Virus record (IMG/VR): IMGVR_UViG_3300037294_000399
Span: 1 to 64,000 of that record
DNA length: 64,000 nt
Strand: one strand, 5' to 3'
From: a virus
Position numbers and translations under genes: made by a program. Each line of letters begins with the position of its first letter. Position 1 is the stretch's first letter. The notes beneath the pieces were generated by a model. That model had not been told where the DNA came from. It ran no database searches and worked only from the letters and a program-made list of their open reading frames with translations. Below, piece by piece: positions 17,303 to 33,260 of the stretch.

Positions 17303-17342
17303 TAGTATCTTTGTGTAACTTTTAGAAATAGAGGTATATTTA
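17303..17342 (+). promoter_or_regulatory. tRNA-operon promoter cassette, copy 1
   Basis: tagtatctttgtgtaacttttagaaatagaggtatattta; TAnnTTTG plus TATTTAT motif; near-identical at 18284 and 31824. Confidence 0.8.
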
Positions 17343-17364
17343 TAGACAAATAAAAACAACAACA

Positions 17365-17442
17365 ATGAAAACTTTTAACAACGCAGTAGTCCTTTTAGTC
17401 TTATGTTTACTAGTAGTAGACAGGATGGGTTATGCATGTTAA
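17365..17442 (+). CDS. Attenuator leader peptide 1 (Val/Leu/Cys): MKTFNNAVVLLVLCLLVVDRMGYAC
   Basis: 11 consecutive V/L/C codons upstream of a terminator and Cys/Leu/Val/Leu tRNAs. Confidence 0.85.
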   Translation: MKTFNNAVVLLVLCLLVVDRMGYAC

Positions 17443-17469
17443 TTAAGTAGTCAAATACGATAACAACTG

Positions 17470-17500
17470 AAACCCATCTAAGCAATTAGGTGGGTTTTTT
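17470..17500 (+). terminator. Attenuator terminator 1
   Basis: aacccatctaa-GCAA-ttaggtgggtt + T run; alternative pairing with gatgggtt 17424-17431. Confidence 0.85.
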
Positions 17501-17507
17501 GCATTAT

Positions 17508-17582
17508 GCACGTGTGGTCGAGTGGTCAAAGGCAACGGATTGCAAATCCGTAAAACCGCTGGTTCGAATCCAGCCACGTGTT
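17508..17582 (+). tRNA. tRNA-Cys(GCA)
   Basis: Cloverleaf; anticodon arm acgga-ttGCAaa-tccgt. Confidence 0.92.
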
Positions 17583-17598
17583 CAAAATAGAAAATAAG

Positions 17599-17883
17599 AT
17601 GGATACAAATGAAGTAAAAAAAGACTTATATAAGTCAAAGAACATGGCTAAATTTAGTCATTATGTAAGTGGGAATTGATACTACACAGTTGAGTTAGCT
17701 ATCGGAACATATCAATTCCCGATATTAACGGTAGAAGAATCAGAATTATATGATTCTGAAGGTAGTGTTAAATTATCCTCAGATTTAGGAACAACAACCT
17801 TTGAGGTAGAAATGAAAGGGTTAGACCTTAACAGATGGATAACAAAAGCCATAGAAAATGAAACATTTATAAAGATAGGGTAA
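17599..17883 (+). pseudogene. Hypothetical gene with internal TGA at 17677
   Basis: Open frame on both sides of a single stop. Confidence 0.55.
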
Positions 17884-17895
17884 AACCTATCATAA

Positions 17896-17979
17896 GCGGA
17901 TATGGGGGAATTGGTAGACCCGCTGGTCTTAGAAACCAGTGCTGAAATAAGCGTGCGAGTTCGAGTCTCGCTATCCGTA
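17896..17979 (+). tRNA. tRNA-Leu(TAG)
   Basis: ctggt-ctTAGaa-accag, long variable arm. Confidence 0.93.
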
Positions 17980-17985
17980 CAACAT

Positions 17986-18063
17986 GCATCTGTAACTCAG
18001 TTGGTTTAGAGTGCTTCCTTTACACGGAAGAAGTCGGGGGTTCGAGTCCCTCCAGATGCACCA
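17986..18063 (+). tRNA. tRNA-Val(TAC)
   Basis: cttcc-ttTACac-ggaag, encoded CCA. Confidence 0.95.
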
Positions 18064-18064
18064 A

Positions 18065-18145
18065 AAGATAGTTACTGCAAACAAAAAGGTTAACAATTTA
18101 TTCGCAAAATAAATCTAAGTGGTTCAATCCCACAAAACTATCTTG
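18065..18145 (+). ncRNA. tRNA-fragment element (anticodon-like GCA arm plus T-arm in a closing stem)
   Basis: aagatagtt/aactatctt stem; atttat-tcGCAaa-ataaat; gtgg-ttcaatc-ccac. Confidence 0.55.
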
Positions 18146-18150
18146 AATTT

Positions 18151-18235
18151 GGCCGAGTGGTGGAACGGTATACACACTAGACTTAAAATCTAGCGGTCCG
18201 AAAGGGCCTTGCGGGTTCGAATCCCGCCTCGGCTA
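18151..18235 (+). tRNA. tRNA-Leu(TAA)
   Basis: ctaga-ctTAAaa-tctag, long variable arm. Confidence 0.93.
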
Positions 18236-18283
18236 CAATAAAATAAAAAAAACACAAAAAGACTTGCTTTTTTAAAATAAATG

Positions 18284-18323
18284 TAGTACCTTTGTGTAAC
18301 TTTTAGAAATAAGAGTATATTTA
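18284..18323 (+). promoter_or_regulatory. tRNA-operon promoter cassette, copy 2
   Basis: tagtacctttgtgtaacttttagaaataagagtatattta. Confidence 0.8.
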
Positions 18324-18364
18324 TTAAACAACAAAGGGGAAACCCACATTAAAAAATAGAAACA

Positions 18365-18454
18365 ATGAAAAAAAATAACAACATATTTGATTTTGCATTT
18401 TTTGCTGCCGAGGCTGATGAAAGCTTGGGAAGGTCATCTATTGTCATAAGTTAA
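18365..18454 (+). CDS. Attenuator leader peptide 2 (Phe/Asp/Ala/Glu): MKKNNNIFDFAFFAAEADESLGRSSIVIS
   Basis: 12 consecutive F/D/A/E codons upstream of a terminator and Phe/Glu/Asp/Ala tRNAs. Confidence 0.85.
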   Translation: MKKNNNIFDFAFFAAEADESLGRSSIVIS

Positions 18455-18477
18455 TGTAAATCATTAAACGAATCGAT

Positions 18478-18512
18478 AAAAGCTCTGACCTAAAAATCAG
18501 AGCTTTTTTTTT
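18478..18512 (+). terminator. Attenuator terminator 2
   Basis: aaaagctctga...tcagagctttt + T run; alternative pairing aggtca 18431-18436 with tgacct 18486-18491. Confidence 0.8.
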
Positions 18513-18596
18513 GTTTAAAAAATAAATAAAAAAAAAATGTAAAAAGTTTGGATGTTTAAAAAATATTTCATACCTTTGCAGAGTCAAAATAGACAA

Positions 18597-18623
18597 GGTA
18601 CCTTAGCTCAGTTGGTAGAGCAA
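18597..18623 (+). pseudogene. 5' half of interrupted tRNA-Phe
   Basis: ggtaccttagctcagttggtagagcaa, matching the intact tRNA-Phe at 21416. Confidence 0.8.
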
Positions 18624-31815: not shown

Positions 31816-31823
31816 AATAAAAG

Positions 31824-31863
31824 TAGTACCTTTGTGTAACTTTTAGAAATAGAGGTATATTTA
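31824..31863 (+). promoter_or_regulatory. tRNA-operon promoter cassette, copy 3
   Basis: tagtacctttgtgtaacttttagaaatagaggtatattta. Confidence 0.8.
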
Positions 31864-31897
31864 TTAGAAAAGAGGTAAAACTCACAAACAAAAAATT

Positions 31898-31999
31898 ATG
31901 AAAACAACAACGACATATCAAACGCAATATCAACCGAAGGGCGGGAAGCCTCAAGGGAAGACTGGGTATGTCATGTTTGAAGACGTGATATTAGGATAA
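31898..31999 (+). CDS. Attenuator leader peptide 3 (Lys/Thr/Tyr/Gln/Pro/Gly): MKTTTTYQTQYQPKGGKPQGKTGYVMFEDVILG
   Basis: Residues 2-24 use only K,T,Y,Q,P,G; downstream tRNAs are Pro, Gln, Tyr, Thr, Gly, Lys. Confidence 0.88.
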   Translation: MKTTTTYQTQYQPKGGKPQGKTGYVMFEDVILG

Positions 32000-32024
32000 A
32001 ATTATAAACGTATAATTTTTACAC

Positions 32025-32057
32025 AACCCAGTCAGAGAAATCTAGGCTGGGTTTTTT
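32025..32057 (+). terminator. Attenuator terminator 3
   Basis: aacccagtcaga-GAAA-tctaggctgggtt + T run; alternative pairing gactgggt 31960-31967 with acccagtc 32026-32033. Confidence 0.85.
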
Positions 32058-32064
32058 ATTTTAT

Positions 32065-32140
32065 CTAGGTGTGGGAAAGTTGGTAATCCGCATGGTTTGG
32101 GACCATGAGACCGCAAGTTCGACCCTTGCCACTTAGACCA
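32065..32140 (+). tRNA. tRNA-Pro(TGG)
   Basis: catgg-ttTGGga-ccatg, CCA. Confidence 0.92.
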
Positions 32141-32198
32141 GAAGAGACTGTTACCAATTCATAGAACTACATGTTGTGAGCGTAGAATTGGAAATTAT

Positions 32199-32272
32199 CG
32201 AGTAGTATAGGAGCGGTTTATCTAACCTACCTTGGACGTAGGAGCACGCTGGTTCAAATCCAGCCTATTCGA
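32199..32272 (+). tRNA. tRNA-Pro(TGG), divergent
   Basis: cctac-ctTGGac-gtagg. Confidence 0.8.
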
Positions 32273-32276
32273 CTAA

Positions 32277-32348
32277 TGAAGAATCGTCTAATTAATAAGA
32301 CAAACACGTTAAAGTGTTAAATGTAGGTGTGAATCCTACTTCTTCTAC
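32277..32348 (+). pseudogene. Degenerate tRNA
   Basis: Cloverleaf outline with 6-nt loop aacac-gttaaa-gtgtt and altered T loop. Confidence 0.45.
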
Positions 32349-32356
32349 TAATATAA

Positions 32357-32427
32357 TGTCGTATAGTGTAATGGCAGCACGTCTGGTTTTGAGCCAGAAG
32401 ATATAGGTTCGACCCCTGTTATGACAA
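32357..32427 (+). tRNA. tRNA-Gln(TTG)
   Basis: tctgg-ttTTGag-ccaga; U1-A72. Confidence 0.88.
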
Positions 32428-32558
32428 CAAAACGAGATAACCCTTTTGAGTGGGGCGGTACTAAGAGTAATTAACTTAGTTTGTGGGTTCGAATTCTATT
32501 ACCTCCACGATATGCTGTTAGATTTTAAGCTTTATTGGTAAAGGTAAAAAATTATTAT

Positions 32559-32641
32559 TGGACGGTGGCCGAGTGGTTAAAGGCGACAGACTGTAAATCT
32601 GTTCTCGTGAGAGTACGTGGGTTCGAATCCCACCTGTCCAA
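32559..32641 (+). tRNA. tRNA-Tyr(GTA)
   Basis: acaga-ctGTAaa-tctgt, variable arm. Confidence 0.93.
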
Positions 32642-32703
32642 CTGTGAAATAGGTGAGATTAAATAAATGGGTCTGAGGGAGTCCATTAAGGAACCCTCTC
32701 CAT

Positions 32704-32777
32704 GCTCTGTACGCACGAAAGGTGGTGCACTGGATTTGTAACCCAGAATAGAATCGGTTCGATTCCGATACAGAGCT
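32704..32777 (+). tRNA. tRNA-Thr(TGT)
   Basis: ctgga-ttTGTaa-cccag; acceptor gctctgt/acagagc. Confidence 0.85.
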
Positions 32778-32825
32778 CAATAAATAAGTATAATACGCAT
32801 TGAAATATACGTATTATACCAAAAT

Positions 32826-32899
32826 GCGGATATAGCTCAATTGATTAGAGCACTAGCCTTCCAAGCTGGGGGTTGTGGGTTTGAGTCCCACTATCCGCT
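32826..32899 (+). tRNA. tRNA-Gly(TCC)
   Basis: ctagc-ctTCCaa-gctgg. Confidence 0.92.
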
Positions 32900-32973
32900 C
32901 TAGTTTAAAAATCGTTGCATGTAGCGAAGATAGTCAAGCTAACTATCACCCAGTTAAGCGATTCTGGGTAAAT

Positions 32974-33036
32974 GCGAGAGTAGCTCAGTGGTAGAGCATC
33001 TGGTTACCAACTAGAGGGTCGTTGGTTCGAACCCCA
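32974..33036 (+). pseudogene. Truncated tRNA-Gly(ACC)
   Basis: gcgagag start, tctgg-ttACCaa-ctaga, 3' acceptor strand missing. Confidence 0.6.
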
Positions 33037-33188
33037 CAAATGTATATTACAATATACAAAAAGATATAAAAACAGTAAAATGTATATTATAATATACAAA
33101 ACAAAATGATTATGAAAACAACAAAATTGGTATAATAGAACATTATAAATACCTTCATTGGTTCAAATCCAATCGGGGGTACTAAAAA

Positions 33189-33260
33189 TCCCTCGTAGCA
33201 AACTGGCGTAGGCAATAGACTTTTAATCTATGGGGCTGGGTTCGACTCCCAGCGGGGGAA
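33189..33260 (+). tRNA. tRNA-Lys(TTT)
   Basis: ataga-ctTTTaa-tctat. Confidence 0.9.

Follow-up and report, generated by a model that had tools for sequence, protein, structure and literature searches.

Multivalent leader peptides are known from the amino-acid operon attenuators of enterobacteria, which comprise thrL (Thr/Ile) and ilvL (Ile/Val/Leu) as well as trpL, hisL, leuL and pheL. In all classical cases the regulated genes belong to amino-acid biosynthesis, amino-acid transport or the aminoacyl-tRNA synthetases. Control of the pheST/thrS type and T-box riboswitches likewise couple the expression of translation components to the supply of charged tRNA. The tRNA genes of phages are usually seen as constitutive codon-usage add-ons or as spares against tRNA-cleaving defences, and to our knowledge the regulation of their expression has hardly been studied. 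Here we describe three leader units, each located ahead of a tRNA operon, in a 64,000-nucleotide (nt) stretch of viral DNA (IMG/VR record IMGVR_UViG_3300037294_000399, positions 1 to 64,000; hereafter the window). The window covers the initial 64 kb of one contig of 96,307 bp with 31% G+C; this genome is labelled G000. An original prediction, made from the letters alone, read the units as leader-peptide attenuators that each sample several amino acids and are each matched to their own tRNA operon. At the level of sequence this core reading is supported by leader composition, codon boxes, terminators, antiterminator pairing, substitution patterns and a fourth class of units in related genomes. 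We consider it probable that the units work as ribosome-mediated (leader-peptide) transcription attenuators and thereby gate the tRNA operons of the phage.

The phage units share several features with attenuators of the thrL/ilvL type: a short leader (whose translation is here predicted) with a run of control codons, an intrinsic terminator, and a mutually exclusive antiterminator that depends on the position of the ribosome (here modelled). As in thrL and ilvL, several amino acids are sampled in a single leader and, as in leuL, one of the leaders (leader 3) uses some rare codons. Unlike these attenuators, the phage units would regulate tRNAs instead of biosynthetic enzymes, and the output would therefore feed back on decoding itself. 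Further differences are the number of amino acids sampled (up to seven per leader, with four putative paralogous units covering all 20), the encoding by a phage with Bacteroidota-type promoters, and the modelled state in the absence of a ribosome, which is read-through. Since tRNAs are outside the classical target range, the units would constitute a distinct form of ribosome-mediated attenuation. With pheST/thrS control and T-boxes they share the predicted link between a translation component and charged-tRNA supply, whereas those systems control synthetase or amino-acid genes, and T-boxes bind tRNA directly. None of the Rfam leader families (Trp, His, Leu, Thr and others) gives a match at E<=1 over positions 16500-34500, nor does the Rfam T-box model match over this interval.

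Judged by function, the nearest published analogue found is the trn operon of Anabaena sp. PCC 7120, a 26-gene tRNA array that is normally silent and is switched on when translation is under stress (PMC8421152, PMC10272220). It is controlled by the repressor TrcR through direct 9-nt repeats that cover the -10 box and the start site, it shares its regulation with the tRNA-repair ligase gene rtcB, and a leader peptide or attenuation is not mentioned for it (PMC8421152, PMC10272220). Both cases concern accessory tRNA operons, with rtcB co-regulated in Anabaena and RNA-repair genes adjoining the operons here; unlike the phage operons, the trn operon is under repressor control and has no subdivision by amino acid. 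The full-text literature searched, which leaves most subscription journals outside its coverage, yielded no report of tRNA genes controlled by a leader peptide, and no published account there contradicts the predicted novelty of multi-amino-acid attenuators for phage tRNA arrays.

The three units are found on the plus strand at 17283-17500, 18264-18512 and 31804-32057. Each consists of a Bacteroidota-type promoter, a 28-nt cassette in the 5' untranslated region (5'UTR), an A-rich spacer, an open reading frame (ORF) that starts with ATG, and an intrinsic terminator in the form of a G+C-rich hairpin with a T run, in this order. The promoter cassette, leader ORF, terminator and tRNAs of all three units lie at the positions originally given for them. 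The promoter of unit 1 (17283-17313, TTG-N20-TATCTTTG, Bacteroidota -33/-7 type) was located by a motif scan and the subsequent cassette (17316-17343) by a scan of the genome. In units 2 and 3, promoter and cassette, located by motif scan, together span 18264-18324 (cassette 18297-18324) and 31804-31864 (cassette 31837-31864), respectively. Promoters of this type, TTG-N17-21-TAnnTTTG, are general in the genome: the motif scan yields 58 on the plus strand versus 6.2 in shuffled sequences, and the motif frequently appears as TAGTACCTTTG. The combination of promoter and cassette, TAACTTTTAGAAATA[GAG/AAG]GTATATTTAT, is confined to 17316, 18297 and 31837, against 0 occurrences expected by chance. 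The original prediction had described a common promoter cassette of about 40 bp; its 5'UTR part is indeed specific to the leaders, its promoter part is not.

The transcribed cassette can form a hairpin of 7 bp at the extreme 5' end of the transcript (17318-17335, ACUUUUA-GAAA-UAGAGGU, with a GAAA-type loop). Across 14 cassette variants, 94 of 98 pair cells are canonical, and the three variable positions are nearly always purines opposite U. Situated directly after the -7 box, the conserved cassette may act as an operator or through its 5' hairpin, with candidate roles in transcript stability or pausing besides that of an operator.

The tRNA clusters were called with ARAGORN and Rfam, which yields three main clusters on the plus strand. 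Leader ORF 1 (17365-17442; 25 aa, MKTFNNAVVLLVLCLLVVDRMGYAC) contains the control block VVLLVLCLLVV at 17386-17418 and precedes tRNA operon 1 (17508-18236), which consists of Cys(GCA), Leu(TAG), Val(TAC) and Leu(TAA). Leader ORF 2 (18365-18454; 29 aa, MKKNNNIFDFAFFAAEADESLGRSSIVIS) contains the control block FDFAFFAAEADE at 18386-18421. The corresponding operon 2 (18598-20687) consists of Phe/Glu/Glu/Asp/Ala/Asp/Ala together with two non-canonical tRNAs (19719 and 20614) and a split tRNA-Phe. Leader ORF 3 (31898-31999; 33 aa, MKTTTTYQTQYQPKGGKPQGKTGYVMFEDVILG) has the longest control block, KTTTTYQTQYQPKGGKPQGKTGY at 31901-31969, whose 23 codons specify K, T, Y, Q, P and G only. It is followed by operon 3 (32065-33261) with Pro/Pro/Gln/Tyr/Thr/Gly/Lys, including Gly(TCC). 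The tRNA-Thr(TGT) of this operon (32704-32777) is detected by Rfam only, and the operon also holds a disrupted Gly(ACC)-like gene at 32981-33037.

The agreement between leaders and tRNAs was assessed by a subset test, in which all subsets of the 20 amino acids with the same size as the true set were ranked by the longest uninterrupted run of their residues in the leader. For each leader the true downstream tRNA set is the unique best subset (rank 1 of 1140 for leader 1, 1 of 4845 for leader 2 and 1 of 38760 for leader 3), as expected from the original claim that each block is made of the amino acids of the tRNAs that follow. The runs of the own sets extend over 11, 12 and 23 residues, versus next-best values of 6, 6 and 8 among 708 ATG-initiated ORFs of 15-60 codons in the whole genome. 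As measured by composition, the match of leader to tRNA set is beyond chance. Leader 3 is, in addition, rich in codons that are rare in the genome (ACG, CCG, GGC, GGG, AAG), with a G+C fraction at third codon positions (GC3) of 0.43 versus 0.17 expected. This bias is clear for leader 3 only, and it is confounded by the G+C-rich pairing segments, which impose part of it.

The same architecture recurs in other genomes. A search of the phage collection, by DNA or protein comparison, gave no cultured relative. Exact and degenerate cassette scans of IMG/VR and metagenome contigs gave 60 leader copies with 35 distinct peptides. Contigs of the metagenomic relatives reach 137-247 kb; the contig studied here has 96 kb, which does not bear out the label "jumbo" initially attached to the phage. 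Cassette matches in the unrelated contigs L025, L027, L032, L035, L036, L040, L041, L045, L048, L056 and L063-L065 have no matching leader and were discarded. The three leader classes recur in the relatives with the same tRNA sets, and a fourth class, starting with MRTINIHMISISNWRRNSHQ, is found before tRNAs for His, Trp, Ile, Met, Asn, Arg and Ser. In the subset test the true 7-member set of the class-4 leader ranks 1 of 77520. The four sets {V,L,C}, {F,D,A,E}, {K,T,Y,Q,P,G} and {I,N,H,M,S,W,R} do not overlap and add up to 20 amino acids, such that the predicted absence of overlap among the first three also holds with the fourth. Single contigs can carry all four classes, as in L003+L001+L012 and L057+L049+L039, and a paralogous origin of the four units is suggested by the promoter, the cassette and the M-K/R-T-x-N start that they have in common. 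A class-4 leader is absent from G000. In L016, DNA homologous to the start of the G000 contig lies about 6 kb downstream of the class-4 operon, and the G000 contig is therefore probably cut short at that end.

The correspondence extends to individual codon boxes. For amino acids with two codon boxes, both boxes are always sampled in the leader and both isoacceptor tRNAs are encoded downstream. Leucine is represented by the leader codons CTT/CTA and TTA/TTG, with Leu(TAG) and Leu(TAA) downstream; arginine by AGA and CGC/CGT, with Arg(TCT) and Arg(ACG); serine by TCG and AGT/AGC, with Ser(TGA) and Ser(GCT). For isoleucine, the leader codons ATT and ATA are accompanied by Ile(GAT) and either a second CAT or a TAT tRNA. 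The agreement of leader codons with the anticodons of the downstream tRNAs would also be expected if the codon array were read directly by uncharged tRNAs in the manner of a T-box, without translation, their binding stabilising the antiterminator. We regard this alternative as very improbable: ATG, open frame and in-frame stop are kept in 60 of 60 copies, in an A-rich upstream context, neither the T-box model nor any other Rfam family matches, and Stem I or T-box-like elements are not seen.

We note that the leaders conserve set membership and not peptide sequence. Changes within the control block comprise 22 synonymous, 25 within-set and 16 out-of-set cases, where single-base neighbours give expectations of 22%, 20% and 58%, respectively; these counts were taken across distinct copies, which are not phylogenetically independent. 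Of the 125 changes elsewhere in the leader, 107 are nonsynonymous and 18 synonymous, and this remainder of the peptide evolves freely. Conservation of the set without conservation of the sequence fits codon sensing and argues against a functional peptide.

Each leader is followed by an intrinsic terminator, as had been claimed: terminator 1 at 17472-17500 (10-bp stem and T run), terminator 2 at 18481-18512 (8-bp stem and T9) and terminator 3 at 32026-32057 (hairpin and T run), all on the plus strand. The three hairpins have folding energies of -11 to -15 kcal/mol, are followed by T6-T9 and are located 29-32 nt past the leader stop in this genome. In the relatives, a hairpin with T5-T12 is found 26-36 nt after the stop in 38 of 38 distinct copies with downstream sequence. 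The stem of terminator 1 is 96.8% paired in relatives, with 3 compensatory pairs, and for classes 1 and 3 the score of stem covariation is reached by 0 of 500 shuffles. Column counts for the terminators of classes 2 and 4 were not used, their low values being artefacts of MAFFT misalignment.

The first tRNA follows the T run at a distance of 2-16 nt in most class 1 and class 3 copies, and of 7 nt in operons 1 and 3 of this genome. A gap of 7 nt leaves no room for a separate promoter, and the tRNAs of operons 1 and 3 could therefore arise only via read-through of the terminator. Behind terminator 2 a promoter-like site is found by motif scan on the plus strand (18548-18578, TTG-N20-TACCTTTG). 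The complete motif is confined to G000 and L001; L006, L053 and L037 contain a -7-like box. The site is a possible bypass promoter. Such a site, together with the separate promoter and strong terminator of each unit, would be in keeping with free-standing small genes for functional peptides or small RNAs, the tRNAs being made by leak-through or from other promoters. The short gap in operons 1 and 3 speaks against this, as do peptides that keep their set membership and not their sequence, with freely evolving tails; the match of the leaders to the downstream tRNAs would be left unexplained. We hence judge such free-standing genes to be highly unlikely.

The attenuator reading requires, besides the terminator, a competing structure. 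In units 1 and 3, the distal part of the leader (region 2) can pair with the 5' arm of the terminator (region 3), which would otherwise pair with its 3' arm (region 4). In unit 1, the antiterminator strand (region 2) spans 17422-17432, and its segment at 17423-17431 (GGAUGGGUU) is complementary to AACCCAUCU at 17471-17479 (-14.3 kcal/mol); in unit 3, region 2 at 31959-31972 (AGACUGGGUAUGUC) is complementary to ACAACCCAGUCA at 32022-32033 (-16.0 kcal/mol), both on the plus strand. For classes 1, 3 and 4, duplexes within the own class have energies of -14 to -15 kcal/mol, versus about -9 for cross-class or shuffled partners. In the class 3 antiterminator 4 of 11 pairs are changed on both sides, a score that 0 of 500 shuffles reach. 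In the class 1 antiterminator 95.7% of cells are paired in 13 relatives, versus 30-61% when the pairing is slid. Regions 2, 3 and 4 also compensate between the putative paralogues, with GGA/UCU in class 1 versus GAC/GUC in class 3. The unit 2 antiterminator is missed by a simple duplex search. Constrained folds yield a candidate interrupted helix on the plus strand between AGGUCAUCUAUUGUCAU (18431-18447) and AUCGAUAAAAGCUCUGACCU (18472-18491), with the same architecture in 7 of 8 class-2 variants. The predicted alternative pairing of the terminator's 5' arm with the distal leader therefore stands for units 1 and 3, by duplexes, conservation and the folds described below, and is weak for unit 2.

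The dependence on ribosome position was modelled by folding the transcript up to region 3 with a footprint of 28 nt masked at each codon. Region 3 is paired with a probability of 0.7-0.9 when the A site is in the control block, and of 0.0-0.3 once the ribosome covers region 2. Without a ribosome these folds give the antiterminated state, with no clear 1:2 "superattenuation" helix.

Direct observation covers the parts and how they are arranged, the agreement of leaders with tRNAs, and the conservation of these features; translation of the leaders, the response of read-through to stalling and the natural cause of a shortage are what we infer. According to the proposed mechanism, transcription would begin at the host-type promoter and a ribosome would translate the short leader. 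Quick decoding of the control block would move the ribosome onto region 2, leaving region 3 free to pair with region 4, and the resulting 3:4 terminator would halt RNA polymerase a few bases before the first tRNA. With the matching charged tRNAs scarce, the ribosome would linger on the control codons and region 2 would stay free to pair with region 3, such that no terminator forms and the operon is transcribed. Since the tRNAs of each operon are exactly those that decode its control block, the arrangement would amount to negative-feedback control of supply, one loop per tRNA set. In the relatives, four such paralogous units would jointly cover all 20 amino acids.

Several observations weigh against this account. 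With respect to the relatives, tRNA-His genes are found in some class 3 or class 2 operons (L015, L018, L019) that have a leader block without His codons, and the nearest relatives L012 and L039 keep an intact class-4 leader behind which only tRNA-Ser(TGA) is found, among endonuclease genes. The expectation that leader composition follows tRNA content in relatives thus holds for the recurrence of the classes with their own sets, and fails for the stray His tRNAs and for the class-4 leaders before Ser(TGA) only. With respect to transcription, unit 2 has the good promoter match mentioned above between its terminator and its tRNAs, and a further tRNA group (20916-22410) is located behind a plain promoter without any leader. 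With respect to the antiterminators, covariation in class 1 is not above shuffles, its variation being mostly compatible with G-U pairs. The unit 2 duplex in G000 is weak and no better than shuffles or controls, and the pairing of its region 3 is constant across ribosome positions in G000; in L017, L020 and L037 it is responsive. Equilibrium folds of the full-length leader with a masked ribosome give a terminator probability of about 0.9-1.0 at nearly all positions. Since the full hairpin is always favoured at equilibrium, any switch must be kinetic, as in trp; the full-leader equilibrium fold is uninformative on a kinetic switch and was replaced by the folds up to region 3. Finally, region 2 of class 3 (and of class 4 in relatives) is located 25-38 nt before the stop, and a ribosome parked at the stop leaves it uncovered. 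A contribution from timing, or from the additional hairpins at 31970-31993 and 32001-32022, is required for class 3.

The same architecture might also serve as a general gauge of translation capacity or as an infection timer. Any slowing of ribosomes (by starvation, host shut-off or late loss of host tRNA synthesis) would then open all operons together, with the codon match a by-product of feedback. All units have the promoter, the 5'UTR cassette and an N-terminal M-K/R-T motif in common, which points to such co-regulation, and the modelled default without a ribosome is antiterminated. Sensing specific to each set is favoured instead by the four conserved sets, which share no amino acid and divide all 20 among them, and by the substitutions that preserve these sets; we regard a common gauge or timer as unlikely.

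With set-specific attenuation as the preferred reading, we tentatively suggest a wider role, which we hold to be possible but short of an even chance: a closed-loop controller of tRNA supply, in which the 20 amino acids are shared out among four attenuators, each gauging how fast the codons of its own tRNA set are decoded and turning on only the replacement tRNAs in short supply. The class-4 unit may also switch on a downstream tRNA-healing enzyme, and the controller would mainly counter host anticodon nucleases and other tRNA-depleting defences. The genomic neighbourhood contains genes of RNA repair. An RNA-repair nucleotidyltransferase of the RlaP family is encoded at 14620-15813, ahead of operon 1, with synteny kept in relatives. 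In relatives, a gene for a kinase with a cyclic phosphodiesterase of the tRNA-ligase type follows the class-4 operon (L016, 6601-7542). These neighbours would fit a setting of tRNA damage, and their support for anticodon nucleases as the trigger, as opposed to starvation or host shut-off, is circumstantial.

If attenuation of this kind does operate, tRNA supply would be controlled by the speed of decoding, the classical logic of attenuation being used to sense the supply of tRNA rather than of amino acids. Four sets with known codons give separable predictions; for example, cleavage of tRNA-Lys should open operon 3 only. Covering all 20 amino acids, the units would also supply compact natural sensors of the speed at which particular codons are decoded.

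The tRNA operons show a number of further features. In operon 1, an ORF of 94 codons between tRNA-Cys and tRNA-Leu (17599-17883) has an in-frame TGA at 17677, where L002 and L007 have Leu; it could be a pseudogene, a sequencing error or a case of read-through. The split tRNA-Phe of operon 2 is interrupted by an insertion of about 670 bp, with the 5' part at 18598-18625 and the 3' part at approximately 19289-19322; the near relative L001 lacks the insertion. The insertion holds a replacement tRNA-Phe (18636-18710) and an ORF for an HTH/HNH-type endonuclease (18790-19281), and looks like a homing cassette that supplies its own copy of the interrupted gene. At the end of operon 2, the tRNA at 20614-20687 has an anticodon loop of 8 nt (ARAGORN anticodon 'agac') and is conserved in L001 and L017; it could be quadruplet-reading or otherwise non-standard. 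The leaderless group at 20916-22410 comprises a weak Pro(CGG), a Phe(GAA) at 21416, a tRNA match of 118 nt (22292-22409) and, at approximately 21496-21625, tRNA-like pieces interrupted by long insertions. In the nearest relative L012, a tRNA with the anticodon CTA (3032-3104) reads the amber stop codon.

Other genes of the window comprise an ABC transporter set with an OmpA-domain protein, located between the tRNA clusters (25385-28908), and a PARP-like ADP-ribosyltransferase together with genes for NAD salvage, namely a NadM-like cytidylyltransferase/Nudix protein and NAMPT (9786-11093, 40870-41874, 43324-44418). Outside the window, a stretch of about 1.8 kb without a long ORF (G000 68742-70600, locus L066) starts from a strong promoter at 68742 and contains three tRNA matches as well as numerous motifs resembling a tRNA T arm; the 3' end of tmRNA is weakly matched there too.

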